64,000 bases of DNA from a virus, in IMG/VR virus record IMGVR_UViG_3300035183_000733, positions 26,496 through 90,495 of that record; one strand, given 5' to 3'. Within the stretch, counting starts at the first letter, position 1. Each line of letters opens with the position of its first letter. Positions 4,696 through 39,952 of this stretch are shown here, one piece after another. The position numbers and the translations under genes were made by a program. The notes below the pieces were generated by a model. That model did not search any database. It saw only the letters and a program-made list of their open reading frames with translations, and was not told the DNA's origin.

Positions 4696-4731
4696 CAAAA
4701 ATAGGTCCGACACGGGTAGATAGTAAATTAT

Positions 4732-4985: not shown

Positions 4986-4990
4986 CACAT

Positions 4991-5163: not shown

Positions 5164-5281
5164 CAAGACATCGACAGAGGTACTCGTCCGCAGACGTGTG
5201 GAAAAGTGTGTGCTTGCGACCATTAAAGTCTCTGTGTATCCCAATAGGTAGGAAGTAATTACTCTGAATGATTGGGAATAC

Positions 5282-13185: not shown

Positions 13186-13268
13186 CTTATTGATAATCAA
13201 TATATTATCATATTATTTTCCAATTTGATAAAAACTTCGTATCTTTACATTGTTAATCAAAGTGGAAT

Positions 13269-15691: not shown

Positions 15692-15762
15692 GACCCTGTA
15701 GCTCAAGGGTAGAGCGCTGGTCTCTAAAACCGGGGTTGCGGGTTCGAATCCCGTCAGGGTCT
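15692..15762 (+). tRNA. suppressor tRNA, anticodon CTA (reads UAG amber)
   Basis: clean 71-nt cloverleaf: GACCCTG-TA-GCTC-AAGGGTA-GAGC-G-CTGGT-CTCTAAA-ACCGG-GGTT-GCGGG-TTCGAAT-CCCGT-CAGGGTC-T. Confidence 0.85.
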
Positions 15763-15788
15763 CATAAATAAAGTGAAGGAATAAGAAT

Positions 15789-16592: not shown

Positions 16593-16679
16593 GGTCCGAT
16601 AGCTCAGTTGGTTCAGAGCGCCTGTCTTACAAGCAGGAGGCGAAAGGTTCCGCAGGTTCGAATCCTGCTCGGACTACCA
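16593..16679 (+). tRNA. tRNA-Val (TAC) with enlarged 14-nt variable region, CCA encoded
   Basis: acceptor ggtccga/tcggact; anticodon arm cctgt-cttacaa-gcagg; T-arm gcagg-ttcgaat-cctgc; ACCA at 3' end. Confidence 0.6.
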
Positions 16680-20820: not shown

Positions 20821-20905
20821 GGGATTGTAGTCGGTAAGGGATGCCGGCCGGTTTGTGGAGCCGGAATGACAAAGTCTAATGCGGGTTCGAATCCCGTCTT
20901 TCCCC
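20821..20905 (+). ncRNA. tRNA-like element, atypical (good T-arm, weak acceptor, 5-bp stem with 11-nt loop)
   Basis: T-arm gcggg-ttcgaat-cccgt; acceptor gggattg/ctttccc pairs 5 of 7; ccggc/gccgg stem with oversized loop. Confidence 0.3.
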
Positions 20906-20918
20906 CAGGTTTTTTTAT

Positions 20919-22271: not shown

Positions 22272-22577
22272 ATGTCAGATTTTAAAGTAGAGCGGACTTA
22301 CAAAGAAGTCGGCGTCATTAAGAAGCAGGGCACAGACCTAACACACCTCGTAACAAAGTTCAATGGTCCCCTCGATGGTCTTAAAACAATGACCGTCAAA
22401 CCGGGCGTGGGCGAGTACTCGTGGGTGCAGAGCCTGATAGTCCCGCTCAAGAGCAACGAGACTATATACATTCACCCGGACCAGACCGGCGTCGGCGTCG
22501 GATTCGTCCGCATAATTCATTCCCATTTAAAGGCTATCGCCGTATTCCACAAGTCACATTTCGATACCATATTATGA
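22272..22577 (+). CDS. hypothetical protein
   Basis: stop overlaps the SET gene start (ATGA). Confidence 0.45.
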   Translation: MSDFKVERTYKEVGVIKKQGTDLTHLVTKFNGPLDGLKTMTVKPGVGEYSWVQSLIVPLKSNETIYIHPDQTGVGVGFVRIIHSHLKAIAVFHKSHFDTIL

Positions 22578-23092
22578 AGTGCGTGAGAGTCGGCAAGTCG
22601 GCGATTGTGGGCAAGGGACTGTTCGCGTGCGAGCCCATAAGACCAGGAGACGAAATCGCGGAATACGTCGGCCGCAAGCTAACCAACAAAGAATTCGACA
22701 TCTTGTTCTCCGCGGGCATGTGGCTCTATGCAGTTTCCGTGCCGAACGGCGTTATCGACGCCGCGGGGGCGGAGTGGGACGGTTATCCTGCAAAGTTCAG
22801 CAACGACGCCATGGGGCTAACAAGAACCGGCGCAAGGAACAACGCGACATTCAGGTACTCCGGCAAGAGGGGCAACTACCGGGTGCACATCGTGGCGACC
22901 AGGTACATAAAATCCGGCGACGAGATATTCACTTCATACGGCCGGAGCTATTGGAGCAATTTTAAAAATGAGCAAGAACTAAATAGAGCAGCCTGCATTA
23001 CTACGGTCTCGGTGAGGACCGGGAGAAGGATCCCCTCGACGACCCCCACTTCTACGACAGGATGCGGAGCATCGGATACACCAAGCGTGTGA
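22574..23092 (+). CDS. SET-domain protein lysine methyltransferase
   Basis: GKGLFACEPIRPGDEIAEYVG, FSNDAMG..NATF (NHSC-like), YIKSGDEIFTSYGRSYW; aligns along the viral vSET / SET core; start reset to ATG 22574. Confidence 0.8.
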   Translation: MKCVRVGKSAIVGKGLFACEPIRPGDEIAEYVGRKLTNKEFDILFSAGMWLYAVSVPNGVIDAAGAEWDGYPAKFSNDAMGLTRTGARNNATFRYSGKRGNYRVHIVATRYIKSGDEIFTSYGRSYWSNFKNEQELNRAACITTVSVRTGRRIPSTTPTSTTGCGASDTPSV

Positions 23093-23660
23093 TACCGTTG
23101 CCGATGAGGTGCGTCTGTATGTATATTACGAGCGACAAACCGGTTCGTCCATTGATGAATTGAAACCGGTATCCGGCCCGCGCAAGCATGAAATGAACGT
23201 GTATACTGCTCTCGAGTATGTGTTCACCAAGAAGGTGCTTAATCACGAGGAGCTTCGCATATCCATAAAAGAATGATAGGAGATATTTGTTTTTGGACGA
23301 CCAGAGACAGCCGGATGAAGTTGTAGGTTACGAAGGCATAGAATGGAGTCGTAAAAAAACGGTCACGAATTCGAAGATTACCTGAACCAGAACGGTATCC
23401 CCGACGTCATATCGTTTGACCACGACCACGACGACGAACATTACGACATAGACTGGGAGAAGGTATACTTCTTCGGGGAGCTATATTCGTACAAGGAGGA
23501 CACCGGTTTGGACTGCCTTAAGAAGCTCATCCGCAGGCTCACAATGAAGGAACCGCATCCGGACAACTGGCCGAGGTGCACGTCGCATTCACTCAATTCG
23601 GTAGGCCGGGCCGAAATAAACAAACTCCTCGAAACTTGGTCGTTTCCTCAATTTGGCCAG

Positions 23661-23735
23661 GATATATAAGAAAACAACGCCGGAATTCAAGTCAACGCCG
23701 GAAGCACTTTCTCCTATCCGGACAGGATATATAAG
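23661..23735 (+). promoter_or_regulatory. two tandem copies of candidate promoter motif GATATATAAGAAAA, 65 nt apart
   Basis: copies at 23661-23674 and 23726-23739; gene ATG at 23756. Confidence 0.4.
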
Positions 23736-23755
23736 AAAAATATCAATCCTTAAAA

Positions 23756-24235
23756 ATGAAAATATTCAGGTTCGAAGAGTTCTCGGTCAACGAGAAACTA
23801 ACCGACGCTGGTCAGGACTATGTGTCGAAAAAGATCGCGAAGCTCCGCGGTGAGGGTAAGGGCCCAAAGCAGGCGGCGGCCATAGCGTACAGCTACGCAA
23901 GGCGCAAGGGATACAAGGTACCCGCGAAGAAAAACGAGTCGGACAACCCGCTCAACGACGATAACTCTACGCTCGACATCAAGACGATGACGTCGCTCCA
24001 GTTCTACAAACTGATAGACCTGCTCGAGGCGGACATCACCGCATACGGGCAGGAGGATCTCCAGTACTACGAGGAGATGACTGGGCTCGACACAGGGACC
24101 CTGCTCGACCTCTACACAACATACGGTTACAACCTGCATAAATACGCAGAGACCGAGAAGCTCAAGAGGGCGTATATGAGTCACGCGGGTAAGACCTGGG
24201 AGCAAATTAAAAAAGAAGCCGAAGAGGCCGAGTAA
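23756..24235 (+). CDS. hypothetical protein
   Basis: ORF. Confidence 0.5.
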   Translation: MKIFRFEEFSVNEKLTDAGQDYVSKKIAKLRGEGKGPKQAAAIAYSYARRKGYKVPAKKNESDNPLNDDNSTLDIKTMTSLQFYKLIDLLEADITAYGQEDLQYYEEMTGLDTGTLLDLYTTYGYNLHKYAETEKLKRAYMSHAGKTWEQIKKEAEEAE

Positions 24236-24237
24236 TC

Positions 24238-25038
24238 ATGGCAACAAGAAAAGCATTCCAAGGGGAGAACTACAAGAGGTCCGGCGAGTACGTAGGCAAC
24301 TACAACGGCGGCAGATCCGAGGTTCAGGAAATGACGAGCACCCTCAAGAGAAGGAACGTAAGGTCCATGGCGGGCAACAGCTCATACATCGGCAAGCGCG
24401 TCCTGCTCATACACAACAACGACCTCGAGAAGGCGGTCAAGGTGCTGAAGGAGTTCTACCCGAAGCACTACGCCACAGAGCTCGCGGCAAATCTTAAGAG
24501 GGATGTTGATACAGACAAGAAGATGGGTGTGTTCGAGAGTGGGATGAAGAACCTCATGACCTTTGAGAATTACTCACATAAAAAGGCAGTATTCGGTGAT
24601 TTTTCCAAGAAGGACCAAGAGCAGATCGACTACTTTATAGAGAAGTTTGCGACCAAGATGGGTGGCACCACGAGACAATCAGCCGCATGGTGGGTCGATG
24701 GCATAACAGAGATCAGCGACGATATCAAGCGTGCGGTATGGGCCGGGATACAGGAGTACATACCCAAGAGGCCGTTCCCTCTTAATAAGGCAGACTTACC
24801 TGAGTGGACAAATGAGTCCGAGCTTAAGGATGACAAGGCAGACGAGACTCACATCTCATTGACCGAGGATGACTTCCGTGCACTCGTTGCCGGCGAAATA
24901 ATTACTCCTGAGGACTTCCCGCCGCACCTGGACAAGCTAAAGCTCGCGCTGCAGGACATCGGCCAGGATAACATGATCCGTATAATAACGGACGAGATGT
25001 ACAAGGCGCGCAAAGCCGGAGATAAAAATATGAACTAA
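24238..25038 (+). CDS. hypothetical protein
   Basis: ORF 3 nt after the previous stop. Confidence 0.55.
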   Translation: MATRKAFQGENYKRSGEYVGNYNGGRSEVQEMTSTLKRRNVRSMAGNSSYIGKRVLLIHNNDLEKAVKVLKEFYPKHYATELAANLKRDVDTDKKMGVFESGMKNLMTFENYSHKKAVFGDFSKKDQEQIDYFIEKFATKMGGTTRQSAAWWVDGITEISDDIKRAVWAGIQEYIPKRPFPLNKADLPEWTNESELKDDKADETHISLTEDDFRALVAGEIITPEDFPPHLDKLKLALQDIGQDNMIRIITDEMYKARKAGDKNMN

Positions 25039-25111
25039 CCGGGAATCCTGAACCACTCTCACGGCAGAACACGGATGGAAGCACAGGAGCTACTCATAAA
25101 ATAATCATTAC

Positions 25112-25360
25112 ATGAATAAGATAAAGGACGCGCTATACTGGATGACGCACACGAAGCTCGGGTGGCTTTTAATATCGTTCGTGTGGTTCGCCGTGTTCAT
25201 GGCCATAGACAATAACGTGGAAGGATCCTGGGCTTTCTGGACAGCGATGCCCGCCCTCGCATACATAACGGGGCTGACACTCGTGATGATTGCGTACGCC
25301 TGGGTGATAAACCCCATAAGAGAGCACAAGGAAAACAAGAGGCTGCGGGAGGGAAAATAG
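25112..25360 (+). CDS. small membrane protein (2 TM), TAG stop
   Basis: hydrophobic stretches; stop codon TAG at 25358. Confidence 0.5.
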   Translation: MNKIKDALYWMTHTKLGWLLISFVWFAVFMAIDNNVEGSWAFWTAMPALAYITGLTLVMIAYAWVINPIREHKENKRLREGK

Positions 25361-25433
25361 TTTTCTGACGGTAGCGTACGGTTAGAATAATTGTGTTATC
25401 TTTGTATCTGTAACTAATAAAACTGTAAGTAAA

Positions 25434-25682
25434 ATGAAAAACATCTTCGTAAGCAGCTTGCCTTTCAAGCTGACTGAGAGCGAGCTTCAGGCCGCTTTCG
25501 AAAAGCATGGTGAGGTAACCTCTGCCAAAATTATCAAGGACCGCGAAACCAACCGTAGCAAGGGATATGGGTTCGTAGAGATGTCTGACGATGAAGCCGC
25601 AACAAAGGCTATCGCAGCTCTTAACGGTTCTGAGTTTGGTGGTCGTTCCATCATCGTTAATGAGGCACGCCCGAAAGCATAA
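25434..25682 (+). CDS. RRM-type RNA-binding protein
   Basis: RNP-2 IFVSSLP and RNP-1 KGYGFVEM; overall like cyanobacterial Rbp proteins. Confidence 0.85.
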   Translation: MKNIFVSSLPFKLTESELQAAFEKHGEVTSAKIIKDRETNRSKGYGFVEMSDDEAATKAIAALNGSEFGGRSIIVNEARPKA

Positions 25683-25727
25683 TAAAGAAAAAACAAAGTA
25701 ATTGCAGCCGAAACAAAACGCGCCGCA

Positions 25728-25741
25728 GATATATAATGTAC
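25728..25741 (+). promoter_or_regulatory. candidate promoter, GATATATAATGTAC
   Basis: truncated version of the GATATATA motif ahead of a leader ORF. Confidence 0.35.
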
Positions 25742-25822
25742 GATGAAGCAAATGATTAACATAGTTCGAATTAGCAGAAGGCGCTCAGACGTCCTGTCCG
25801 GATTATGTCCAATCGTAAGCTG
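25742..25822 (+). CDS. short leader ORF (26 aa, MKQMINIVRIS..)
   Basis: nucleotide-level similarity to the 16171 leader (ATGAAGCAAATGATTAACATAGT vs ATGAAGAAGATGATCAACATAGT). Confidence 0.3.
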
Positions 25823-25844
25823 ATAACATCGCTTTTCTTTTGGG

Positions 25845-25880
25845 ACAAGAAACCCGGACCTAATCGTCCGGGTTTTTTAT
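25845..25880 (+). terminator. rho-independent terminator / processing hairpin
   Basis: AAACCCGGAC-ctaatc-GTCCGGGTTTTTTATTTT. Confidence 0.65.
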
Positions 25881-25887
25881 TTTACAC

Positions 25888-25961
25888 TGGTGTGTGACCA
25901 AGCTGGTTAAGGCACCTCCCTGATACGGAGGAAATCGTGGGTTCGACTCCCACCGCACCAA
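25888..25961 (+). tRNA. tRNA-Ile (GAT)
   Basis: anticodon arm cctcc-ctgatac-ggagg; T-arm gtggg-ttcgact-cccac. Confidence 0.75.
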
Positions 25962-25966
25962 CAAAT

Positions 25967-26019
25967 AGTCGCTTAGCTCAGTTGGTTGGTCCCCAGTTCG
26001 AGTCTGGAAGCGACTACCA
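25967..26019 (+). ncRNA. tRNA minihelix-like element (acceptor + D-region + T-arm + CCA, no anticodon arm)
   Basis: AGTCGCT-TA-GCTCAGTTGGTTGGT-CCCAG-TTCGAGT-CTGGA-AGCGACT-A-CCA; perfect 7-bp acceptor. Confidence 0.35.
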
Positions 26020-26085
26020 AGCCAGTCAATATGCGGGATGGCTTGCATTGTTACCGGACATTAAACCACCCGGGCGTTAGAGAAT

Positions 26086-26159
26086 GCACGCGTAGATCAA
26101 CTGGATAGATCACCTGACTACGGATCAGGAGGCTGGGGGTTCGAATCCTTTCGCGTGTA
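26086..26159 (+). tRNA. tRNA-Arg (ACG)
   Basis: D-stem gatc/gatc; anticodon arm cctga-ctacgga-tcagg; acceptor gcacgcg/cgcgtgt. Confidence 0.75.
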
Positions 26160-26221
26160 CAAAATGCCTCAGTAGTCCCGTCGGCTTCGGAACCGATAGG
26201 GCAGAATATGAATTAAGATAC

Positions 26222-26294
26222 GGTCCCGTAGCTCAGCGGATAGAGCATTTGCCTTCTAAGCAAAGGGTCACTGGTTCGAATCCAGTCGGGATCA
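26222..26294 (+). tRNA. tRNA-Arg (TCT)
   Basis: anticodon arm tttgc-cttctaa-gcaaa; T-arm actgg-ttcgaat-ccagt. Confidence 0.8.
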
Positions 26295-26369
26295 CAAAAA
26301 GTAAAGTTATGAAACTGAACATCAAAAAAAGTAAAACAGATCCCTAAGGAAGTCAATTCCAAGTTCGGA

Positions 26370-26714
26370 GTGTGCATATTCGGGGAACCGGATGCTGAGG
26401 TGTCCACATGGATTGCAGCGCACGGTTTCGAGGTAGAAAAAGTTGGTCCTTATACGAATGTGTACATCGACAAGGACATCGATGAGGTGTTCGAGCCGGC
26501 GGGGAAGTTCCAGTACATGGACGGGTTCAGCCCGAACATGAACAAGCACCTGCACGTTGGCCATCTGTCCAACCTGGTGCTCGCAAAGGCGTTCCTCGGC
26601 ATGGGTGTCACCAATGGCACGGTGGCCATACTTGGCGACACTCTCGAGGGCGATGTTTCCAAGGACGAGGCGCTCGATAAGTTCAAGTTGTACGAATGGT
26701 CGTCAACCGTGTAG
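26370..26714 (+). pseudogene. arginyl-tRNA synthetase remnant (part of N-terminal domain plus HIGH region only)
   Basis: YMDGFSPNMNKHLHVGHLSNLVLAKAF matches the ArgRS D-Y/F-S-A/S-P-N-x-A-K-E-M-HVGHLRS catalytic-core start; only 114 aa, no rest of the enzyme. Confidence 0.6.
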
Positions 26715-27157
26715 GTCACCCTCGTGCCGAATTGTATGCGCTTGGCGGCCCACTCTTTAAACAGTATCACCGAGTACACTATAGCTGCGGCAACTATGGC
26801 TCCGACAAACAGAGCTACCGTAACGGCTATCAGTCCGGGAAACCCGAGCGCCCAAGCGAACAACAGCTTGTCCCACCAACCAGCAAATGATGGTTCGGCA
26901 AAGAACACATCCCAGATGCAGACACCGGTGGCGCAAGCTATCGGCATGGCGAATATGGACAGCAGCAGTGGGAACGGCTTGCTCATTTCGTCTCTCCGGC
27001 TTTTCATGGTCAGGAAGTTTACGAGAACGCCGATCCACGATATTGGCAGTATTATCACGGCCGTTATACAGGCCATCACATACCAGAAGAGCGTTTCGGG
27101 TTTAACGCCGAACGTCGCCTGGACGAACAGCGGCCAAAATTTTGATTCTATTTTCAT
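26450..27157 (-). CDS. hypothetical membrane protein (about 4 TM); 3' end overlaps the ArgRS remnant so the true stop is uncertain
   Basis: N-terminal 150 aa strongly hydrophobic; the C-terminal Ser-rich tail is probably antisense shadow. Confidence 0.45.
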   Translation of the reverse strand: MKIESKFWPLFVQATFGVKPETLFWYVMACITAVIILPISWIGVLVNFLTMKSRRDEMSKPFPLLLSIFAMPIACATGVCIWDVFFAEPSFAGWWDKLLFAWALGFPGLIAVTVALFVGAIVAAAIVYSVILFKEWAAKRIQFGTRVTYTVDDHSYNLNLSSASSLETSPSRVSPSMATVPLVTPMPRNAFASTRLDRWPTCRCLFMFGLNPSMYWNFPAGSNTSSMSLSMYTFV

Positions 27158-27167
27158 TGTATTGTCA

Positions 27168-28595
27168 TTATGCGTACATCTCTTTCAAAGTTATGAATCG
27201 CCTGTGGTCGCCACAGGCGACGAGCAGGTCCTCCTTCTTGAACTCGGAAGGGTGGTGGTACCCGCAAGCGTTGGACATCTCGTGGATCTCTTTGCGCAGC
27301 TGCTTGATGTAGTTAGCTGCGCGGACGGATTTGAGCGTCGGGTCTATGCCGTTCTGCAGCCACTTGTTCTGTGTGGCCACGCCAGACGGACACCTGTTCG
27401 TGTGACAAACCTGTGCCTGGATACAACCGATGGACATCAGCGCTTCCCTACCGACGTTAACCATATCACAGCCGAGCGCAAATGCCTTTATGGCATTGGC
27501 TGGAAGCCCGAGCTTGCCAGACCCGATGAACACTACGTTGTCGAGCGCCGGGTAAACTCTGAATATTTTTATGATGCTGTGTATTGCCTCGTTGAACGGC
27601 AGAGACAGGTGGTCTGTGAATGATGGTGGTGCTGCACCAGTGCCGCCCTCGCCGCCGTCTATTGTGATGAAATCCGGGCCGAAACCGGACATGGCCATTT
27701 GCGTGGCGAGCTCCTCCCAGTCTTTTACGCTTCCAATCGCCGCCTTTATACCGACAGGCAGACCGGTTGCGTTTGCTATCTCTTCGATAAAGTTTATCAT
27801 GCTTGTCACGTCCTTGAACGCGCTGTGAGTGCTTGGCGACACGGCGGCCTTGCCCATTTCGATGCCCCTGGCGTCTGCGATCTCCTGTGTCATCTTCGCG
27901 GCCGGCAGAATTCCTCCCTTGCCGGGCTTCGCGCCCTGGGACAGCTTTATCTCGATTGCCTTTATGCAGGGATTATCTTGCACGAGTTTCTTCAGCTTCT
28001 CGAGCGAGAACTTACCCTTCTCGTCGCACACTCCGAAGTATCCAGTTCCGAACTGGAACACCACGTCAGCCCCTTGCTTGTGATACACTGACAATCCGCC
28101 CTCCCCAGTGTTGTGGTAACAACCAGCGAGCTTAGCTCCGCCGTTAAGTGACTCTACAGCCTTTGCCGATAACGCGCCGAAGCTCATGCCAGATATGTTC
28201 ACTATAGAGTTTGGTGTGTATGGTTTTGCACGCTTGCCTTTGCCGAGCTGTTTCTTGCATGGCAGGTGACCGATGTTGTCGGAGTGCACCGGCATCATCT
28301 TGTGCTTTATGATTATGTGACCGGGTTCGTTGAAGTCCATGTCTGTACCGAACCCTGTGAGGTTGTTCTCATCCTTCGCCGAGGCATATATCCAAGCTCT
28401 GTGTCGCCTCGAGAATGGAAGCTCCTCTCTATTGTTGGCGATGAAGTACTGCCGGATTTCTGGACCTATCTTCTCGAACAGATAACGGATGTGTCCTATC
28501 ACCGGGAAGTTGTGGGTTATTGCGTGTCTGTTTTGCATTATGTCGCGTATGGCAACTACGGCCAGGAAAGCGACGAACAATAATAAATATAACAT
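27168..28595 (-). CDS. glutamate-synthase (GltB) FMN-domain-like protein with N-terminal TM anchor
   Basis: ISGMSFGALS, KLSQGAKPGKGGILP, IDGGEGGTGAAP, FIGSGKLGLP motifs typical of GltS domain-2 family proteins. Confidence 0.8.
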   Translation of the reverse strand: MLYLLLFVAFLAVVAIRDIMQNRHAITHNFPVIGHIRYLFEKIGPEIRQYFIANNREELPFSRRHRAWIYASAKDENNLTGFGTDMDFNEPGHIIIKHKMMPVHSDNIGHLPCKKQLGKGKRAKPYTPNSIVNISGMSFGALSAKAVESLNGGAKLAGCYHNTGEGGLSVYHKQGADVVFQFGTGYFGVCDEKGKFSLEKLKKLVQDNPCIKAIEIKLSQGAKPGKGGILPAAKMTQEIADARGIEMGKAAVSPSTHSAFKDVTSMINFIEEIANATGLPVGIKAAIGSVKDWEELATQMAMSGFGPDFITIDGGEGGTGAAPPSFTDHLSLPFNEAIHSIIKIFRVYPALDNVVFIGSGKLGLPANAIKAFALGCDMVNVGREALMSIGCIQAQVCHTNRCPSGVATQNKWLQNGIDPTLKSVRAANYIKQLRKEIHEMSNACGYHHPSEFKKEDLLVACGDHRRFITLKEMYA

Positions 28596-28648
28596 AGGAC
28601 GAAACCTTATCTCATTTTAGAATACAAATATAATCAAAATACGTATCG

Positions 28649-29287
28649 ATGAAGTACTCGTTTGGAGTTCCCCCAAAGTGGGATGTGTCGGAAAATGAGC
28701 TCGAGTGCACGGTCAACTCGCGTGATCTCGACCTGCCGACACAGAATCTCCACGTGCCGTTCTGCAAGAAACAGTACCTCCGACAAGCGGTTGTGAGCGC
28801 CGGTCCGAAGGAGATGGGCAAGATAGCCGAGAAGATAGCCGAGAAGAAGTACGATCTCGACCCGGTCGAGTCCGACGAGTTCGACTACTACATGGACGGC
28901 ATCAGGCTGGAAGTTAAGAGCTCTCGGGCTTTCGTCAAGGACAAGAGAAAAGTTCTCGTAAACGCGAAGGACCTCCCGTTCGAGCGCACGTACAACTGCA
29001 ACATCCAGCAGATAAAGCGCGGCCTGTTCGACGAACTGATGTACATGATATTCGCGCACGACAAGATCCAGGTGTTCATAATAAAGTCTGACGACATAGA
29101 ATCCGCGGACATAGGATACTCGAACAAGCAGCACAGGAACAACGAGGGCGAGGGTCAGTTCCACATACACTCCGGGAATTACTCGATGCACATAGACATG
29201 CTGATAGGCGAACTCGACTACGCCGAGTGCTACGAGATGCTATCCACGGACAAGGAATCCATGGAATTGCTCGCGAGATTTAATTAG
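28649..29287 (+). CDS. hypothetical protein, possible PD-(D/E)xK nuclease fold; TAG stop
   Basis: D..E.K arrangement in DYYMDGIRLEVKSSR; weak. Confidence 0.4.
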   Translation: MKYSFGVPPKWDVSENELECTVNSRDLDLPTQNLHVPFCKKQYLRQAVVSAGPKEMGKIAEKIAEKKYDLDPVESDEFDYYMDGIRLEVKSSRAFVKDKRKVLVNAKDLPFERTYNCNIQQIKRGLFDELMYMIFAHDKIQVFIIKSDDIESADIGYSNKQHRNNEGEGQFHIHSGNYSMHIDMLIGELDYAECYEMLSTDKESMELLARFN

Positions 29288-29687
29288 ACCTCACCAGACC
29301 GCCGCTAACGATGTCCCTCACGAAGTAATCCTTGTACTTTGGACCGACCTCGAACGCGTCGCCGGCATCGCTCATGAACGCGTACGATCCCATGTTTGGC
29401 TTGGTCTCGTTTTCGAACCTCGCGTCCATCTCGTAAAGCACATAAAGCTCCATGTTCATCTCACTTGCTATCTCGCGCAAAGCGACCTCGTCCTTCGTGA
29501 TGTCAAGATCCCCATACCACACCTTCTCGAACTCCTTGAGTCCGCGCAGTGTCATAACGACGTTTGCGTTGAATATGACTGCGTTCTTTGGGTTCCTCTC
29601 CCTGTAACCTGATTTAGACATCGATATGATGCGCCCGGAGGCTCCGAGCTTCTCGATGAATAGGCTTCTGATTTTACCCTCGTCCAT
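29280..29687 (-). CDS. hypothetical protein (135 aa)
   Basis: start reset to internal Met 94 (MDEGKIRS) directly after the upstream NTase stop; the listed Arg-rich N-terminus is antisense shadow. Confidence 0.45.
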   Translation of the reverse strand: MDEGKIRSLFIEKLGASGRIISMSKSGYRERNPKNAVIFNANVVMTLRGLKEFEKVWYGDLDITKDEVALREIASEMNMELYVLYEMDARFENETKPNMGSYAFMSDAGDAFEVGPKYKDYFVRDIVSGGLVRSN

Positions 29688-29689
29688 TA

Positions 29690-31180
29690 TTATCTGTGTA
29701 TTGATAGACCAGCAATATAATTGTTTACGGCGAATACGGTATCGTTGTACAGCTCGGCAACCTTGTCGGAATCCGGCTCGTCCATCAGGTCGGCCTGCTC
29801 GAACGCGGTGCCGAGGTCCTTCAACTTCTGTGCTGCGTCGTCCATGAGCTTGTTCAGCTCCACCTTGCCGTACCGTATACTCTTCAGGTACTCGGCCTCC
29901 GGCCTCCTCACTATAATGCCGCGGCCGGCGGCGATGTCCTCGCTCATGTATATGAGGCGCATGCAATGCAGCATGTTCTTGCCGTCGATCTTCTGGTTGT
30001 GTCCCTCAACGTCGATCCACCTCGCCTCGTTACGCTCGCGCCTCCAGGTCATGTACCGGTTGTACAACTTGCAGTGGGACATGAAACCGTCCTTGTTGTA
30101 ACTCATGTAGCACATTGGTACTGCATCCTTAGGCGTCTTGCTTAGACGGATAGTATCCGAGTCGTCGAGCACGATGCCCTTGTACCCGAGCATCTTCAAT
30201 CCGTGTGATTTGACCCATTCAAGGGTCCGCTCCGGATCATCGGCGAAGTACGCACTGAACATGCCTCCGTTTAATTCCCCGAGATACCCACGGACTACAT
30301 CGTTGTCCTTTATATCTGTCGCAGGTCGAGCCCCCTCTATTATCTCTTTCAGGTACACGATGGTATGTGCGAGTCGGTCGTAATATACGCCATACATGTC
30401 GCGCATGTGCTCCACAGCGTTCAGCGCGCAGAACCTCTGTTCCATGCCTCTTTCGGAGAGCCACTGCTCTATGGGAACACTACCCTGACCAACGAACGTG
30501 TAGCAGAAGTCGAGTGGACCCTTGCGTTCCATCTTCTCCTTCTCCCAGTTGTTCAGCTTGTCCTGACCGTCGGCCTTGCGTATCTGACTCTCCCCGTAAC
30601 CGAGGAACGCCTTGTAACAAAGCTTCGACAGAAACACTTCCGGGCGTTTGAGCAATATGTCCATCTCTGGGTGTTTGTAAACGAGGCAGTCGTCCGGTAT
30701 GTCGAAAACCTCGAGCATGTTTGGGTTGTTCACCGCGAGCAGCGATATGAACTTGCGCATCGAGTAGTAAGTGGTCTCCTCGTTGGTTTCCATGTTCTTC
30801 TCCTTTATTTCCTCCCAGTCGGGGTTGAAATCGAACATGGAGTAGTACGAATCCGGGAATATGAACACGGCCTTGTAGTCGGTGTCGGACGTCGGCACGT
30901 TGGTGCCGTATGCCCTGCTGCCGGTTATGTACTTTAGCACGATGTACTGCTCGATGTCCTTTGACGTGAGGGCCTTCCGGAAGTTGTGCCTCGCGTGCCC
31001 GTACTCGAATCTGTACTTGTCGCCAAGGTAATCGACGTAGACGAACCCATCGAGTATGTCGGTAATGGGGAACGCGTAGTCCTTCTTCTCGAACACCCTC
31101 GTGCTGTCGTCGGTCACGCACAGTGCGGACATCTTATTCTCCACCTTGTAGAACTCTCCTATTTTGAGATTTATTAGCAT
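29690..31180 (-). CDS. nucleotidyltransferase (Pol-beta superfamily, GS...SDxD type), 496 aa
   Basis: YITGSRAYGTNVPTSDTDYKAVFIF is the minimal NTase signature (hGS-x9-13-SDhDh). Confidence 0.6.
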   Translation of the reverse strand: MLINLKIGEFYKVENKMSALCVTDDSTRVFEKKDYAFPITDILDGFVYVDYLGDKYRFEYGHARHNFRKALTSKDIEQYIVLKYITGSRAYGTNVPTSDTDYKAVFIFPDSYYSMFDFNPDWEEIKEKNMETNEETTYYSMRKFISLLAVNNPNMLEVFDIPDDCLVYKHPEMDILLKRPEVFLSKLCYKAFLGYGESQIRKADGQDKLNNWEKEKMERKGPLDFCYTFVGQGSVPIEQWLSERGMEQRFCALNAVEHMRDMYGVYYDRLAHTIVYLKEIIEGARPATDIKDNDVVRGYLGELNGGMFSAYFADDPERTLEWVKSHGLKMLGYKGIVLDDSDTIRLSKTPKDAVPMCYMSYNKDGFMSHCKLYNRYMTWRRERNEARWIDVEGHNQKIDGKNMLHCMRLIYMSEDIAAGRGIIVRRPEAEYLKSIRYGKVELNKLMDDAAQKLKDLGTAFEQADLMDEPDSDKVAELYNDTVFAVNNYIAGLSIHR

Positions 31181-31257
31181 ACGCGAATATATGAATAAAA
31201 AAAGAAACCCGCGGCCCTTTACGAACCACAGGTTTCCTCCGACTTAGTTGATGGTGA

Positions 31258-31446
31258 TTACTTTTTCTTTATGGTTATCTGGACCTTCTTGTTGGGGTCC
31301 GAAATGTCTTGCGCGATGAACACGATGTGCTCATCCTTGCTATCATTGGCGAATATCCTGCACTCCGACAGTTCCGCCTTGAAGTTTCCGAAGTCTATTA
31401 CTACTTCGGCAGTCGCGTCCTTATGGACTTTAAGTTGTTCTGACAT
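31258..31446 (-). CDS. hypothetical small protein
   Basis: ORF only. Confidence 0.35.
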   Translation of the reverse strand: MSEQLKVHKDATAEVVIDFGNFKAELSECRIFANDSKDEHIVFIAQDISDPNKKVQITIKKK

Positions 31447-31682
31447 TTGTTCTTTATTTTGTGTGCTGTCGTCTTTATGTGGCCGCCGACTGCCGCGACA
31501 GGATTAGTTCGGGAGAAGTAGAAATACAGACCAAAGAATAGCGCTGCCACAAAGTAGAATATTCCAGTAGTCACCCAATAGCTCCCAGTCAAGTCCAAAA
31601 TCATTTTGAACAAGACGTCGAAGCCCAGCGGGTTGAAGAACATCCCGAGCATTAAGCAAATTATGGCGATTCTGTTTCTCAC
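31401..31682 (-). CDS. hypothetical small membrane protein
   Basis: two hydrophobic helices. Confidence 0.35.
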   Translation of the reverse strand: MRNRIAIICLMLGMFFNPLGFDVLFKMILDLTGSYWVTTGIFYFVAALFFGLYFYFSRTNPVAAVGGHIKTTAHKIKNKCQNNLKSIRTRLPK

Positions 31683-31725
31683 CCTTTATACTGTCATCTT
31701 CCATTTTCATAAAACACCCAGGTGG

Positions 31726-31959
31726 TCACGCTACGTTTTTGAACACAATGTGATCCATCGGAATACCGCTCCTCACCAGCTCCACATAGTTAACGTCGTA
31801 GAACAACAGGATCTTGGCGAATCCGCTGTCCGGCAGGTAATCAACTATCTTGCCGATTTCCCCCCCCGATCCGTTTGCCGAGTACACCGGACCGCCGTTG
31901 ACTATGTTCCTATCCAGGCCAGTTCCGACCTGCAGATAGTATTGGTTTACCCTGAACAT
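31726..31959 (-). CDS. hypothetical protein
   Basis: ORF only. Confidence 0.35.
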   Translation of the reverse strand: MFRVNQYYLQVGTGLDRNIVNGGPVYSANGSGGEIGKIVDYLPDSGFAKILLFYDVNYVELVRSGIPMDHIVFKNVA

Positions 31960-31979
31960 TCTTATTATATATTCAGGAC

Positions 31980-32699
31980 TTACTGAGCAACAGCGTTAGA
32001 AACGAGATTGCTCAGCGTGTTCGAGAACTCGGTGCATAAATCCATGGTAGCAACAACGTCGCCCTCGCAGTATTTCTTTATGCCCTCGTGGTCTCCGGCA
32101 TAGTAGCTAAGGTGCACGCGGTTGGCCTGCATCTCAGCCTTAGGCGATGCGATGCCGAACACGGCCGACATTGTGTCGAGCGATGTGAAGCTCTCCTGCC
32201 ATGCGCCTCCGCTCCAGAACTTGGCGATGTCCATGAACTTTAGGTCCCAAGGCTTCTTGTCGTACACGGTGATTATGCCGGACGGCTTGATCTTGTTTAT
32301 GAGCATGCGCTTCCAAAGGAACGGAACGTCAAACCTCTCTATGGTGTGCCCACCGAGGGTGTGCCCGGTTGCGTAAGCGTTGTTTAATACGATGTTGGTC
32401 TTTTTGAGAATGTCGAGCTCGTCGCCCCCGTAGAACGAGTTGATCTTGTACTCGCCGGACGAATCCCACTGGCCGAACGTTACGCACACAACACGACCGA
32501 ACTCGGGATGCAACCCGGACTTCAACTTCCACATCTCGTCGACCCCGAGATCTTTGTTCTCGGGGTATCTTTCCCTCAGCCAATCTGTTCTTTTGTGCCA
32601 GAGCTCGGCGAGGCGGGGATGAGCGACCGTCAGGTCGTCGTAGGTAGAGACGATACCTGCTGTCTCAATATCTACAATTACGAGTTTCTTTAAATCCAT
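31980..32699 (-). CDS. DnaQ-like 3'-5' exonuclease (DEDDy)
   Basis: Exo I VIVDIETAG, Exo II HTIERFDVPFL, Exo III YCEGDVVATMDL. Confidence 0.75.
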   Translation of the reverse strand: MDLKKLVIVDIETAGIVSTYDDLTVAHPRLAELWHKRTDWLRERYPENKDLGVDEMWKLKSGLHPEFGRVVCVTFGQWDSSGEYKINSFYGGDELDILKKTNIVLNNAYATGHTLGGHTIERFDVPFLWKRMLINKIKPSGIITVYDKKPWDLKFMDIAKFWSGGAWQESFTSLDTMSAVFGIASPKAEMQANRVHLSYYAGDHEGIKKYCEGDVVATMDLCTEFSNTLSNLVSNAVAQ

Positions 32700-32716
32700 G
32701 CCCTTTATACGGCATG

Positions 32717-33004
32717 TCAGAAGAGAGGTCGCGCTTTTATTTCCTTGATGTCGCTGTGAATGTCGACGTAGAACTTGGACTTCTCCGTGTACACCTTAAC
32801 GTTCTTGAGTTTGGCACCCGGCGCAAGGCGCAGGAACTTCTTGGACTGGTTGTACCCGTCTATCACATAGAGCTGGTACTTATTGTGGTCGTCGCCGTTC
32901 ATGTTCTTGAATACGAGCCGACGGTACACGTTGCCGCGCACGCGCTCGGGCTTGCCGACCGTAACGAGCTCGGCACATATAATACCCATCTGCTGTTTCA
33001 TCAA
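32717..33004 (-). CDS. hypothetical protein
   Basis: ORF only. Confidence 0.4.
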   Translation of the reverse strand: MMKQQMGIICAELVTVGKPERVRGNVYRRLVFKNMNGDDHNKYQLYVIDGYNQSKKFLRLAPGAKLKNVKVYTEKSKFYVDIHSDIKEIKARPLF

Positions 33005-33083
33005 AACAAATATAAGATAAATAAAGTAATGGAAACGCGTATCGGCATATTCGTTTTCTTTTTGTAAATTTACCCATTAAGTT

Positions 33084-33311
33084 ATGTCAATGAAACAACT
33101 CATGAAGCGATTTACGCAAGGCAAAAAATCACCGGCTGTGTTGCCGACTAAGGCCATAGAGAAGGCCAAGGCCGTGATACGTAGCTGCGAGACATCACTG
33201 CAACTGAGCTCGGCACAGAACTACATCGAACTCGTAAACAAAAAAATAGGGTCTAAATGTAACGAACTGGAGGTACTGTACCAGGACCAGCTCCAAAATT
33301 TAAAAGGATGA
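33084..33311 (+). CDS. hypothetical protein
   Basis: ATGA overlap with the next ORF. Confidence 0.4.
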   Translation: MSMKQLMKRFTQGKKSPAVLPTKAIEKAKAVIRSCETSLQLSSAQNYIELVNKKIGSKCNELEVLYQDQLQNLKG

Positions 33312-33730
33312 AAATAATAAACGGGAAATCTTATATTGAGGTTATCGCCATGGAGTCGAAGCTCGGGAAGGTGAGCACGAACGAGGCGACCATGACGCAG
33401 TGGATGGCGCTCGGCCAGGTAAAAAAATGTGTGGACAAATCGGAGGCGAAGCTACTCGCTAAGCTCGACGAGAAGTGGAAGAAGCTGTCAGAATCTAAGG
33501 TAGTCATGTACTATTGCGAGGCGGATCGGACGTCCATCAGCGCGCTCGACATAGATTACTCGTATATGGTTGACAGTGCGCCGACGACTGCGTACGAACT
33601 CATCATGATGGCGCAGCGCAAGGTTGACCGCGAGATATTCGACACCAAGCTGGCTGCTCGGGCCCTCGCACAGAAAGGGTATTCTATATCGACCAACCCC
33701 ACACCAACAAAAAAGTACAGCCTACGATGA
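33308..33730 (+). CDS. hypothetical protein
   Basis: ORF. Confidence 0.45.
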   Translation: MKIINGKSYIEVIAMESKLGKVSTNEATMTQWMALGQVKKCVDKSEAKLLAKLDEKWKKLSESKVVMYYCEADRTSISALDIDYSYMVDSAPTTAYELIMMAQRKVDREIFDTKLAARALAQKGYSISTNPTPTKKYSLR

Positions 33731-33845
33731 ACATCATAATTTCGGACCTCTGGGTTCCGGTAAGGGCACACAGGCCAAGCGCATAGCCGCTCTGGGATTC
33801 AACCATATCTGCAGGGCGACGTGCTGGATGGAACAAACCCAATAG
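33727..33845 (+). pseudogene. adenylate kinase N-terminal remnant, frameshifted and truncated
   Basis: ATG 33727 gives MNIII.. then the other frame gives GPLGSGKGTQAKRIAALGFNHI (Adk P-loop start); one T missing in ATTT(T)CGG would fuse them; ORF ends after about 40 aa. Confidence 0.4.
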
Positions 33846-33873
33846 AAATAATATTCAAAAAAAATAAAACAGT

Positions 33874-34500
33874 ATGTCGATAACAAAAAGTAGAAGTTAC
33901 AGCAAAGAGCGCGAATCCCTAACGGAAGCTGCGATGAAGAGCATCGTGTTTAATAAAGAATACAGGTGCTTCAAAAAGGGAGAGCGATATGAGTTCAAGC
34001 CCGGACTGAACCTGCTCGTCGGAGACCAAGGGTGCGGCAAGAGCACGATAATATCCTGCATGCGCGATGACAAGAACGACCAGTGGACTATAGACGTAGA
34101 CCCGGTGGAGTTCAGGTTCCTCGACACCGAGAAGATGAACCCGCGCACGGTCGGAAACCTCAATTACGCGAGAGACGTTGGCTACACAATAGCTTCCAAC
34201 TTCATGTCGCACGGACAGATTCTTCTACCGATGGTCGGGGCGTGCAAGGACATGAAGGGATACATCCTGTTTCTCGACGAGCCAGAGGCGGCGTTGTCTA
34301 TCCGCAGTCAGATCAAGGTCGCGGACGCTATTGCCGAGTGCGCCAAGCACAACCAGGTGTTCGCGTGCACGCACAACCCATACATAATCCGCAAGGCCAA
34401 GGAAGTGCTCGACCTCGAGCGCAAGATGTGGACCGACGCGGAGGAATTCATAAAGCACCAAGAGAGTAGAAACCCAAGAAAGAAAAAAGTAAACAGGTAA
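33874..34500 (+). CDS. minimal ABC-type / AAA_21-like ATPase (208 aa)
   Basis: Walker A GDQGCGKST, signature-like MSHGQ, Walker B ILFLDEPEAALS. Confidence 0.6.
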   Translation: MSITKSRSYSKERESLTEAAMKSIVFNKEYRCFKKGERYEFKPGLNLLVGDQGCGKSTIISCMRDDKNDQWTIDVDPVEFRFLDTEKMNPRTVGNLNYARDVGYTIASNFMSHGQILLPMVGACKDMKGYILFLDEPEAALSIRSQIKVADAIAECAKHNQVFACTHNPYIIRKAKEVLDLERKMWTDAEEFIKHQESRNPRKKKVNR

Positions 34501-34641
34501 TCGTAATGCGGGCGTAATCGTCCGGATTGCCGTGCGCGCTGATACTCGACGCAGGACTCACAGAATTCGATAAGCCTACGTATACCTGCCATGTCGGTCG
34601 GTCCAGGATGGTCCGACGAAGTAGACGCCGTCACGGGCGGT

Positions 34642-35004
34642 TTATCTCTGCTTTAATGCCGGCGCGTTATCTATTATTCGCTGTATCCGCTCGAGCTGAA
34701 TGAGATTGTATTTGTTAAACCAGGTGTGCAGCAACTCCATCTTCATCTCGTCCTCGAGCGTTGGGATCGGAACAGAGTACTTCAAAACACCATCATCGTA
34801 ATCGGCATTCTCCTCGAGTTCTTCCGCTTCGTCCTTTATGGTCGTGATGTTGTCTTCAATCTCTTCAAGCTTGTCGAGCGCTTCGTCCATGAAGTCGTCT
34901 ATCTCGCCTTCCTCGTCCTCTCCGGTGAAGTTGTCTTTCAGATCGGTAACAAGTTCGCGCAGGTCTCTTACCGCGTCTTTGATGTCTTCGATTTCGTCTT
35001 CCAT
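34642..35004 (-). CDS. highly acidic hypothetical protein (120 aa)
   Basis: N-terminal 80 aa are mostly D/E; start codon abuts the downstream gene. Confidence 0.5.
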   Translation of the reverse strand: MEDEIEDIKDAVRDLRELVTDLKDNFTGEDEEGEIDDFMDEALDKLEEIEDNITTIKDEAEELEENADYDDGVLKYSVPIPTLEDEMKMELLHTWFNKYNLIQLERIQRIIDNAPALKQR

Positions 35005-35603
35005 TACTGCATATTTTGGAAATCGTCCAGGTGCATCTTAGGTATCATTATCTTAGAGACCGGACTCAGGTTGTAGAATCCAACGTTCTTGTTCGCGAGG
35101 GCCCTGTGCAGCTGCACGTACTCGTTGCTTATGGTCCCCGCCTTCTTAGACAGCGGGTGGTCACCAGTCTTCGCGAAGAAGTGGTTCGGCGTGAAATCAA
35201 CGCCGAGAAGCCCAATATTCTTTGCGCCCATCTTGTACGCGAGTATGACCGCTATGTATGGCGAATTGCTCGTGTAGTCGATAGCTGGTTTGTCGAGTTC
35301 ACACGCCCCGTACCTGCCGAGAGTTATCACGCACTTCCGGGCGTCGTCAACTTTCATGCCACGTAGGTGCGTGAATATGACCTGTGCTTGAGTGCTCTCT
35401 ATGAAAGACCACCTCTGCTGGCTGAAGCTCACCTTGTCGTTGACGACCACGAGGTAGTTCGGCGAAAATAATCGTTGAATATCATTAACACCAATAGTTA
35501 TATTTCTATGTGGTTCAACTAACAAAGTAGCGCTTTCACCACATCCACAAACTATTATGTTTGATCCTTTATGTTTGTTTAATATGCTACCTAACTCTAT
35601 CAT
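35004..35603 (-). CDS. hypothetical protein, possible Rossmann-like fold (GCGES)
   Basis: ORF; IIVCGCGESATLL motif. Confidence 0.5.
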   Translation of the reverse strand: MIELGSILNKHKGSNIIVCGCGESATLLVEPHRNITIGVNDIQRLFSPNYLVVVNDKVSFSQQRWSFIESTQAQVIFTHLRGMKVDDARKCVITLGRYGACELDKPAIDYTSNSPYIAVILAYKMGAKNIGLLGVDFTPNHFFAKTGDHPLSKKAGTISNEYVQLHRALANKNVGFYNLSPVSKIMIPKMHLDDFQNMQ

Positions 35604-35904
35604 TCAAATAGTTTATCATATTTTGAAGCATATTGCAGGAGTCACATAGTAATCCTCACCGCGCCTGTCATCCTCACACGTTGAACAAATCTTTTCATGG
35701 TTGCGGATCCAGAATTTCTACCTCCGTGAATGCAGCCAAATGGAGCACATGTTTTTTGTCCTTGTCCAGAACGAGTACATCCCGTCGATATGGTCGAAGA
35801 ATATAATCTCGCCGACCTTATCGGCGCGCATCCTACCGGTACGTGCACGTCTTCAAGCACTTTGATAGGTCTCCCTTGGTACGTCGTAAAGTTTCATGTG
35901 TATT

Positions 35905-37104
35905 TTATTTGAATCCTATGCCCTTCGTTGGTTTTGAGTCCCCAAGTAGTACAGTGTCGTCCTCGTCCTGCCTCAGCGAGAATATGTCGGCCAGACTCAT
36001 AGGCCCGGTTGCCGTATGCTTGATCTCATACTTGTCTATCACCCTCTGAGCATCCTCTTTAGACAGCTTGTTGAACTCCTTTATGGAGAGCATGCGCTGT
36101 TTTCTGAGTATCGCTTCGTCTATCATCTTTATGTCGGAGTTGAATGTGGCAAGCACCTGAATGTTCAGGAAGTCGTTGAGTATGCCATCGGACGAGTTGA
36201 GTATGTTGGACACGCCGTCTCCGCCGTACTGGTTTATGTCCCTCTTGATGAGCACGCGCTCGGCGTCCTCTATCACGAGCAGTATGCCTGGCTTCTTCTT
36301 GCCGCCCTCTTCGTCTATCCTGTCATCAGCCCAGTCGAGCAGGAAGTTGTTGAACACCGGGGTTCCTATCATGTCGACCATGTTGTTCGGCATGTACAGG
36401 ATATTCTTCTTCGTTTTCGCCAGGTCTCTTATCAGCCTGCGTATGTAGTACGACTTGCCAGTTCCTGGCGTGCCGTACAGGAGTATGATGCCCTTGTTCT
36501 TCTCGCTTATCCTCTTCAGGTTAAGCTCGTGGAACTTGGAAAACCCGTCTCCGTAGTGAATGTCGAGGTCGAACTTCAGGTCCGCGCTTATCATCGGCAG
36601 CTCCTTGGTGTACAATCCGGACTCTGAGTCCTGGCACAACAAGTGAATCCTGTTTATCTCGTCCGACGTCTCGAGCTTTATCTTGTGCAGCGCCTCGACA
36701 AGCTCATCGGGGACACCCACATACTGATTGTACATGATGTCAACCTCCTGACACACGAGCGTGCCGTGTTCCTTGTCCTTGAACTTCTTCTGCGCCGGCT
36801 TTATCTTGTAGTGATCGTCGTCGGCAGAGTGAGACCTCCTGTTGCGAACGTACACGATGCTGTCCTTGTACTTTATGCGCATGAGGACCTGCTGGTACTC
36901 GTCGTCCTGGTACTTCCAGTCCAGGCTGCAGTCCTCCTTGTAGATGTCCTGTATAACAGATATGAACTGGTTAAACAAGAACGGCCCGTTGATCCGCATC
37001 CATGACGGTACGACCGAGTTGTCCTTTACGAAGAAGTTTAGCGCGTCAGATTCCTCCTCGTGTATCCTGTGCCCGAGCTTGTCTATCTTTAGTTTATCCA
37101 TCAT
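35905..37104 (-). CDS. AAA+ ATPase (classic clade) with unknown N-terminal domain
   Basis: Walker A LYGTPGTGKS, Walker B LLVIEDAE, sensor-2-like region ATFNSDIKMIDEAILRKQR. Confidence 0.75.
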   Translation of the reverse strand: MMDKLKIDKLGHRIHEEESDALNFFVKDNSVVPSWMRINGPFLFNQFISVIQDIYKEDCSLDWKYQDDEYQQVLMRIKYKDSIVYVRNRRSHSADDDHYKIKPAQKKFKDKEHGTLVCQEVDIMYNQYVGVPDELVEALHKIKLETSDEINRIHLLCQDSESGLYTKELPMISADLKFDLDIHYGDGFSKFHELNLKRISEKNKGIILLYGTPGTGKSYYIRRLIRDLAKTKKNILYMPNNMVDMIGTPVFNNFLLDWADDRIDEEGGKKKPGILLVIEDAERVLIKRDINQYGGDGVSNILNSSDGILNDFLNIQVLATFNSDIKMIDEAILRKQRMLSIKEFNKLSKEDAQRVIDKYEIKHTATGPMSLADIFSLRQDEDDTVLLGDSKPTKGIGFK

Positions 37105-37164
37105 GTTGTTTTTATTTGATTTATCTGCAATGTTGCGCCTCCCTGTTTTATATATCGGAAAAAA

Positions 37165-37200
37165 TTAGGGGGCTTTTGTCGCCCCCCCTAATAAACTGGT
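37165..37200 (-). terminator. rho-independent terminator for minus-strand genes
   Basis: on minus strand: AGGGGGGGCGAC-aaaa-GCCCCCTAATTTTTTCC. Confidence 0.55.
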
Positions 37201-37201
37201 T

Positions 37202-37831: not shown

Positions 37832-37851
37832 TATTTCTTAGTTTTTATTTT

Positions 37852-38502: not shown

Positions 38503-38519
38503 TTTAATAACTCTATGAT

Positions 38520-39950: not shown

Positions 39951-39952
39951 TT

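Follow-up and report, generated by a model that had tools for sequence, protein, structure and literature searches.

Arginyl-tRNA synthetase (ArgRS) is a class Ia enzyme of 550 to 630 amino acids (aa) that is described by the Pfam domains PF03485, PF00750, and PF05746 and by the TIGR00456 model, with known structures that include those of yeast (1F7U) and Escherichia coli (5B63). The canonical enzyme requires tRNA even for the activation of arginine, and its small N-terminal domain contacts the D-loop of the tRNA. In huge phages, whose genomes exceed 200 kb, a single genome can encode as many as 67 tRNAs and 15 synthetases (Al-Shayeb et al. 2020, PMC7162821); these synthetases were confirmed by TIGRFAM models, and the main text of that article does not mention arginyl or ArgRS. 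Here, we analyzed a stretch of 64,000 nucleotides (nt) of the IMG/VR virus record IMGVR_UViG_3300035183_000733 (positions 26,496 to 90,495), referred to as the window, whose source genome likewise measures several hundred kb and encodes many tRNAs as well as synthetases of its own. The window contains the first third of an ArgRS-like gene next to two tRNA-Arg genes, and we estimate at roughly 85% the probability that it represents a pseudogene, inactivated recently, of a phage-borne, miniature (~390 aa) ArgRS homologue.

The family from which this pseudogene descends shares with canonical ArgRS the overall fold, the SPN-x-x-K-x-x-H-x-G-H block, an MSSR-type second signature, and a helical C-terminal domain with an ArgRS-like end. 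It differs in its length (~390 aa versus 550 to 630 aa), in its sequence (~15% identity), in an N-terminal domain that is about halved (~65 aa), in a trimmed anticodon-binding domain, and in far shorter insertions in the catalytic domain. The window copy corresponds only to the first third of such an enzyme. Like the deletion-derived pseudogenes of phage accessory genes, it combines a microhomology joint, read-through chimeric tails, and a homopolymer frameshift, and it is unusual only in that both parental arrangements can be recovered from public assemblies.

The gene remnant and its two lesions

The stub open reading frame (ORF) extends from 26370 to 26714 on the plus strand, encodes 114 aa from a GTG start codon, and contains FSPNMNKHLHVGHLS. 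It lies 74 nt from tRNA-Arg(TCT) (26222..26295, plus strand; Rfam 72.2 bits) and 210 nt from tRNA-Arg(ACG) (26086..26160, plus strand; 58.9 bits), which are both intact and were predicted by ARAGORN, the Rfam gathering score for tRNA being 29. ARAGORN, Rfam, and the ORF analysis thus bore out the arrangement and the spacing proposed in an earlier note on this DNA. The HIGH signature, here His-Val-Gly-His (HVGH, 26553..26564, plus strand), was read from the sequence and aligns with HVGH or HAGH of ArgRS structures. When the stub was compared directly with curated models, all matches were weak, namely, 11.1 bits with Pfam PF00750 (tRNA-synt_1d; E 0.18, cut-off 23.3) and 13.7 bits with NCBIfam argS TIGR00456 (E 0.015, cut-off 261.65), both below threshold, as well as an E value of 0.74 with the Thermus thermophilus ArgRS structure 1iq0. 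A three-sequence profile matched Plasmodium falciparum ArgRS with an E value of 0.002. ArgRS was, however weak the scores, the sole synthetase in each of these match lists.

Apart from two partial relatives, a word-indexed protein search with the stub returned nothing but an identical JGI gene call of 104 aa on a contig of 373,759 bp. An exhaustive HMMER search retrieved 112 proteins, mostly of 390 to 420 aa, whose first ~125 residues match the stub with E values down to 4e-48. From 23 full-length members we built a family hidden Markov model (HMM) of 391 positions, which matches the window from 26322 to 26693 at positions 5 to 128 (E 2e-47), a range in which the stub keeps all family-invariant columns. 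The profile check that the earlier note had suggested was below threshold with the general ArgRS models and significant through the family HMM; this match, along with the fact that the family members are ArgRS homologues, makes the resemblance to ArgRS decisive. Codons 8 to 126 of the gene occupy 26331..26688 (plus strand) in the frame of the stub ORF and cover, as mapped from the model of family member P0017, the small N-terminal domain, Rossmann strand 1, the HIGH helix, strand 2, and the beginning of the helix that follows. The stub is thus the complete first third of a ~390-aa phage protein; the earlier reading as a truncated ArgRS stands, the parent not being the canonical 580-aa enzyme.

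No other piece of the gene was detected with the family HMM in any frame of the 64 kb. In tblastn searches of the window with 67 family members only 26322-26693 matched, and an E. coli ArgRS query revealed no further gene piece in the window. A weak 12-aa echo of ArgRS at 12641-12685 was dismissed as a chance match. The second signature loop, which is KMSSRxGN in the relatives, and a complete Rossmann fold are absent from all six frames of the window, and the family HMM search found no DALR-type anticodon-binding domain there. The idea that the fragment might belong to a longer, frameshifted but complete gene is thus not upheld, and the window copy is not an enzyme and is unable to aminoacylate tRNA.

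The relatives that clarify this locus were obtained only by profile-based scans and exact-protein look-ups. A nucleotide search of phage records (INPHARED) returned tRNA matches only, and single-protein scans of IMG/VR with the stub, a neighboring glutamate-synthase-like protein, and a neighboring membrane protein found nothing. Two contigs of one sample (SRR23592399), L118 and L051, were identified by exact-protein look-ups and each show one side of the locus in its unbroken state. The former was found through its intact 390-aa ArgRS-like protein P0128, which belongs to the same 90% cluster as the stub and is encoded at the syntenic position. In L118 (7288-9420), the intact gene is surrounded by five tRNA-Arg genes, of which ACG, GCG, and TCT are upstream (following tRNA-Ile) and CCG and CCT downstream; of these five isoacceptors, the window keeps ACG and TCT only. 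A more distant relative, the 482-kb contig L037, shows in succession an 82-aa membrane protein, tRNA-Ile(GAT), tRNA-Arg(ACG), (CCT), and (TCG), and a full-length gene for 387 aa. These syntenic full-length genes bear out the proposal of a decayed ArgRS-type gene beside its cognate tRNAs. The same synteny with L037 indicates that the cassette is ancestral to the group, and the stub is not the remains of a failed recent acquisition: the cassette is recurrent, and the window lineage is losing it.

The truncation, which had been described as a single event, consists of two lesions. At the 3' end, L118 is collinear with the window over 22272-26693, and L051 is ~95% identical to it from 33825 down to exactly 26689. 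A three-way alignment places a rearrangement junction at 26689..26693: the sequence resembles L118 through 26688 and L051 from 26689 onward, and the tetranucleotide GTAC at 26690-26693 is common to both, with blastn alignments ending at 26693 for L118 and at 26689 for L051. Beyond the junction, the stub ORF continues into a foreign tail (26694..26714, plus strand; ...EWSSTV, stop) that is antisense to the gene of a multi-pass membrane protein. Of the latter, the conserved codons 1 to 156 are present (26690..27157, minus strand), whereas the junction has deprived it of its native stop codon and of the 25 codons that preceded it. The version of the relatives has 181 to 188 aa and is unbroken in L051 (181 aa); the window protein is 93% identical to P0117 and 59% to P0118, and both diverge from it after ...TYTVDDHSY. 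Its reading frame now runs into a chimeric tail of 79 codons (26450..26689, minus strand), an antisense read-through of the ArgRS-like stub, and the resulting minus-strand ORF of 235 codons (27157 to 26450) overlaps the stub ORF by 265 nt. It is this 235-aa ORF that gene callers picked in the independent Logan contig described below. The foreign tails on both ORFs together with the microhomology are the pattern expected of a real joint of illegitimate recombination.

An explanation of the break by an intron or a hotspot of homing elements was also ruled out, since both partners of the junction are identified. Rfam introns were found neither in this region of the window nor in L049, L050, or L002, and the divergent tail of family member P0011, which derives from a GC-rich chimeric scaffold of 932 bp, is not evidence for such a hotspot.

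The event was not a simple deletion. In L118, the ArgRS-like gene is followed by genes for topoisomerase I and a CYTH protein, and orthologues of both with 90% identity or more are present at other sites of the 373,759-bp contig, which indicates a rearrangement accompanied by the loss of ~1.8 kb. No such orthologue was found elsewhere on this contig for the 187-aa gene beside the membrane-protein gene of L051. In the relocated block (L119, 14.5 kb), homology to L118 starts only at L118 position 10287, and the block contains no tRNA and no match to the family HMM. The segment 8476-10286 of L118, which comprises the 3' two-thirds of the gene, tRNA-Arg(CCG), tRNA-Arg(CCT), a 173-aa gene, and half of a 185-aa gene, is therefore missing at both joints. 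The possibility that L118 and L051 are overlapping neighbors was rejected, as a repeated promoter-like element terminates both contigs in the same orientation. This intergenic element (TTTGATAAAAACTTCGTATCTTTACAT) occurs once in the window (13207-13251), just upstream of the gene for a UvrD-like helicase, and in the relatives it is found at contig ends and at a rearrangement joint (L052 11629-11687, the ends of L051 and L118, and, inverted, L119 9476-9543).

The second lesion affects the start of the gene. All homologues start with MK[IL]xxxKxKQIPK, and the alignment with L118 DNA (ATGAAG...AAAGTCAAGCAGATTCCC) identifies the ancestral start at the ATG at 26309, which is 13 nt past tRNA-Arg(TCT) and out of frame with the stub ORF. 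This start and the first seven codons (MKLNIKK) now belong to a dead-end ORF of 12 codons (26309..26347, plus strand) that is closed by the TAA at 26345-26347. Comparison with the family and with L118 DNA places one extra nucleotide (a +1 frameshift) in a run of seven A at 26324..26330 (plus strand): the distance between the ATG and the codon for the invariant Pro is 34 nt in the window and 33 nt in the family, the site reads ATA AAT AAA GTC in L118 and ATC AAA AAA A GTA in the window, and VKQIPKE resumes in the next frame past the run.

A compact family of ArgRS homologues

Family members exceed the gathering threshold of Pfam PF00750 with 24 to 37 bits (best 36.7), and P0013 also passes that of DALR_1 PF05746 (24.5 bits, cut-off 22.3). 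In NCBIfam, argS is the top match, but with 44 to 65 bits it stays below the equivalog cut-off of 261.65. A TIGRFAM screen of the type used for the huge phages would thus probably miss this compact family, which scores far below the argS cut-off. A profile of 24 family sequences retrieved only ArgRS chains from the Protein Data Bank (PDB), of which yeast 1bs2 was the best (E 1.4e-10), in an alignment that spans the catalytic second half and the anticodon-binding domain up to the last residues. The AlphaFold2 model computed on this alignment of 24 sequences had a pLDDT of 93.5 and a pTM of 0.92, and a Foldseek search of the PDB with the family model returned ArgRS for each of the top 20 matches (1f7u, E 1e-16, TM 0.71), followed by CysRS. 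Furthermore, the conserved family columns D72, N77, Y185, D189, and the Q of EQxxHF align to Glu148, Asn153, Tyr347, Asp351, and Gln375 of the yeast enzyme. These residues reportedly bind arginine in the yeast structure.

As judged from these profiles and the predicted fold, the parent family is a miniature ArgRS homologue of ~390 aa, about two-thirds of the usual length, and we infer that it is an active ArgRS. It may represent the smallest ArgRS in nature, inherited together with its own set of as many as five tRNA-Arg isoacceptors, a proposal that we find more likely than a function of the stub in the window. PHROGs has no separate family for these compact proteins, and our literature searches did not find them. 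If active, the family would be a natural minimal ArgRS, informative about the parts of the enzyme that recognition of tRNA-Arg requires, as well as a phage-borne module of synthetase and tRNAs that is gained and lost as a unit.

The family was found in 44 IMG/VR contigs of 11 to 676 kb and in 57 more metagenome loci. Among 185,579 species-representative genomes it occurs in only 7 contigs, all from metagenome bins and none from an isolate cellular genome, which indicates that it is apparently phage-borne. Of the 30 tRNA genes located at most 500 nt from a family gene, 18 are tRNA-Arg, as compared to 14 of 167 farther away (Fisher p 1e-9; the loci are not phylogenetically independent). Truncation is rare: 42 of the 44 viral loci span the HMM to within its last few positions, every metagenome locus uncut by a contig end reaches at least position 348, and almost all of the ~100 other loci are full length where the contig allows.

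Three further copies are shorter. One lies between tRNA-Ile and tRNA-Pro and ends at HMM position 121 (L050 775-1203), another, which abuts the end of a contig of a Campylobacteraceae metagenome-assembled genome, stops near position ~125 (L002 1-130), and the third ends at position 239 (L035 5992-6711). The L002 stub is in frame with an AraC-type helix-turn-helix gene, and this contig may be chimeric. The ends near positions 121 to 128 are too few cases for an interpretation of their clustering. The L037 contig also encodes, at 2841-3572, a TrpRS-like protein of 243 aa (usual length ~330 aa) with the motifs GKIHIGN and KMSKS, which may be a second miniaturized class I synthetase in this phage group.

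Explanations for the truncated gene

In the interpretation that we favor, an L118-like ancestor carried tRNA-Ile, tRNA-Arg(ACG), (GCG), and (TCT), the ArgRS-like gene, and tRNA-Arg(CCG) and (CCT), a form of the cassette that recurs in this group of huge phages. Illegitimate recombination at the 4-nt GTAC joined codon 126/127 of the gene, tail to tail, to codon 156 of the minus-strand membrane-protein gene. This removed from the locus ~264 codons, which encode the remainder of the Rossmann fold (its second half), the KMSSR loop, and the anticodon-binding domain, and, together with them, the two downstream tRNA-Arg genes. An extra A in the homopolymer also cuts off the ancestral start codon, and the two surviving tRNA-Arg would have to be charged by the host enzyme. 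The anatomy of the locus, the junction, the frameshift, the intact orthologues, and the ArgRS homology of the family are seen in the data, whereas the lack of function of the stub and the order of the two lesions are inferred.

Several observations weigh against this interpretation. Compared to its intact ortholog, the stub has a ratio of nonsynonymous to synonymous substitutions (dN/dS; Nei-Gojobori) of 0.12 overall and of 0.013 for codons 43 to 126, at a dS of 0.40; the intact neighboring genes have values of 0.02 to 0.16. The stub ORF contains no internal stop codon, and all family-invariant residues are kept. Low dN/dS excludes a long neutral decay, so that the inactivation was recent or the stub is still constrained; from the sequences, a very recent loss and a stub still under selection would fit equally well. 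In addition, the support for the lesions comes from assemblies rather than from reads, and the search for the 3' part covered the 64-kb window and the 14.5 kb of L119 out of a genome of 374 kb.

One alternative is that the N-terminal third is retained as a functional stand-alone polypeptide that binds or regulates tRNA-Arg, which could be made from the GTG at 26370 or, by +1 slippage on the A7 run, from the ATG at 26309. The strong conservation of codons 43 to 126, the 114 open codons, and the truncation of two other copies, L050 and L002, near the same point speak for such a role. However, the stub breaks off within a helix of the Rossmann fold and lacks three of its strands, which in the structural model makes an independent fold unlikely; its end point was set by a rearrangement that also damaged the partner gene, and its native start codon is out of frame. 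The ~100 other loci keep the whole gene, and the few additional copies that are truncated do not share one break point; P0002 is probably a partial sequence from a short contig, as its read-derived accession suggests, and P0011 comes from the chimeric scaffold. The pattern of replacements may point in the same direction. After correction of the frame, the stub and P0128 share 87% identity, which rises to 99% over codons 43 to 126. The 10 replacements that could be polarized, with L037 as outgroup, all occurred in the lineage of the window (binomial p 0.002); nine affect codons 3 to 42, and one changes the Tyr of the conserved CVYG motif to Phe. Synonymous divergence (pS) is also elevated in codons 3 to 42 (0.74 versus 0.31), and this excess makes a recombination mosaic as likely an explanation for that segment as relaxed selection. 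Overall, we consider a functional stub unlikely and retain a recently inactivated pseudogene as the preferred reading.

It is still less probable that the gene was split, with its 3' two-thirds moved to another place in the 374-kb genome and the two halves still assembling into an active enzyme. The presence of the topoisomerase I and CYTH genes elsewhere on the source contig is compatible with such a relocation, but the L118 segment that holds the 3' part is at neither junction, the relocated block is devoid of family HMM matches and of tRNA genes, and the 5' piece has a frameshifted start. An assembly or sequencing artefact that conceals an intact gene is very improbable, even though tRNA arrays break assemblies and homopolymer runs are error-prone on some sequencing platforms. 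An independent assembler produced a Logan contig (SRR11727984) that corresponds to 26240-38595 of the window at 100% identity with 0 mismatches and spans both the A7 run and the joint. This contig, which itself starts inside tRNA-Arg(TCT) at 26240, is recorded in two samples, the 104-aa product is present on two JGI contigs, and the joint bears the microhomology and the read-through tails expected of a real recombination joint. The notion of a chance HIGH-like motif in an unrelated small ORF would agree with direct matches under every curated threshold; it is refuted by the family HMM match, by the 87% identity to an intact 390-aa ortholog, and by the ArgRS nature of the family in profile and fold, and its probability is practically negligible.

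As a pseudogene, the stub is a case of routine gene decay, and it provides a clean and datable example of a huge phage shedding translation-related accessory genes. In comparison to close relatives, the ArgRS-like gene, three of the five tRNA-Arg genes, and the genes for adenylate kinase and a PTH2-type peptidyl-tRNA hydrolase are damaged or gone.

tRNA genes and companion genes of the window

ARAGORN identified 20 tRNA genes in the window. The conserved tRNA-Ile/tRNA-Arg/ArgRS-like block is opened by tRNA-Ile(GAT) (25888..25962, plus strand; ARAGORN; Rfam 58.1 bits), and the order with tRNA-Ile first is also seen in L037 and L118. The tRNA-Arg(ACG) gene is 85% identical to the copy of L037 and 87% identical to that of L118. 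Between tRNA-Ile and tRNA-Arg(ACG), at 25967-26019, we noted a tRNA-like stub in which the anticodon arm is missing: its acceptor stem is perfectly paired over 7 bp (AGTCGCT/AGCGACT), the D arm is reduced to its 5' half, and a T arm (CCAG-TTCGAGT-CTGG) is followed by an ACCA end that is encoded. Neither ARAGORN nor Rfam called a tRNA at this stub, which looks like an internally deleted tRNA gene. A scan of 25600-27400 for promoters and terminators gave no signal exceeding the shuffled background.

At 15692-15763, ARAGORN predicted a tRNA with the anticodon CTA (amber suppressor, labelled tRNA-Pyl), and one is also present in the relative L017. Five tRNA genes have lengths of 85 to 91 nt, namely, those for Asn (4607-4696), Tyr (4896-4986), Gln (5080-5164), Val (16593-16679), and His (20821-20906). 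Each of them adjoins a copy of normal length with the same anticodon, and they may be intron-bearing genes or degenerate duplicates.

Next to the membrane-protein gene, at 27168-28595, lies a gene whose 475-aa product contains a glutamate-synthase FMN-type domain (PF01645, E 2e-76); it is kept in all three relatives L051 to L053. As to the other genes with which the earlier note had compared the ArgRS remnant, GluRS (5530-7092) is indeed intact, with PF00749 (E 1e-90) and an anticodon domain. The adenylate kinase stub at 33727-33845 was correctly recognized as such: L051 has an intact adenylate kinase (ADK) of 171 aa (PF00406, E 9e-34), relative to which the window lacks 341 nt at a joint near 33819-33825 and contains further frame breaks. 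Judged by eye, the flanks of this deletion are partly similar in L051 (CTGCAC...TGCT). The proposed frameshifted Smr ORF at 12469-12706 found no backing, as neither the two pieces nor their frame-corrected fusion had a Pfam match; the motifs LDLHG and ITGHS are visible there by eye. The PTH2-type remnant is located at ~34514-34703 and consists of ATG CGG GCG TAA and an out-of-context C-terminal piece (...PCALILDAGLTEFDKPTYTC); the gene is intact in L051 (135 aa), and 259 nt are absent from the window. Finally, collagen triple-helix repeats were detected in the minus-strand ORFs 38520-40025, 39953-42046, and 46189-47727 (Pfam E 3e-28 to 3e-54), which are probably fibre or decoration proteins.

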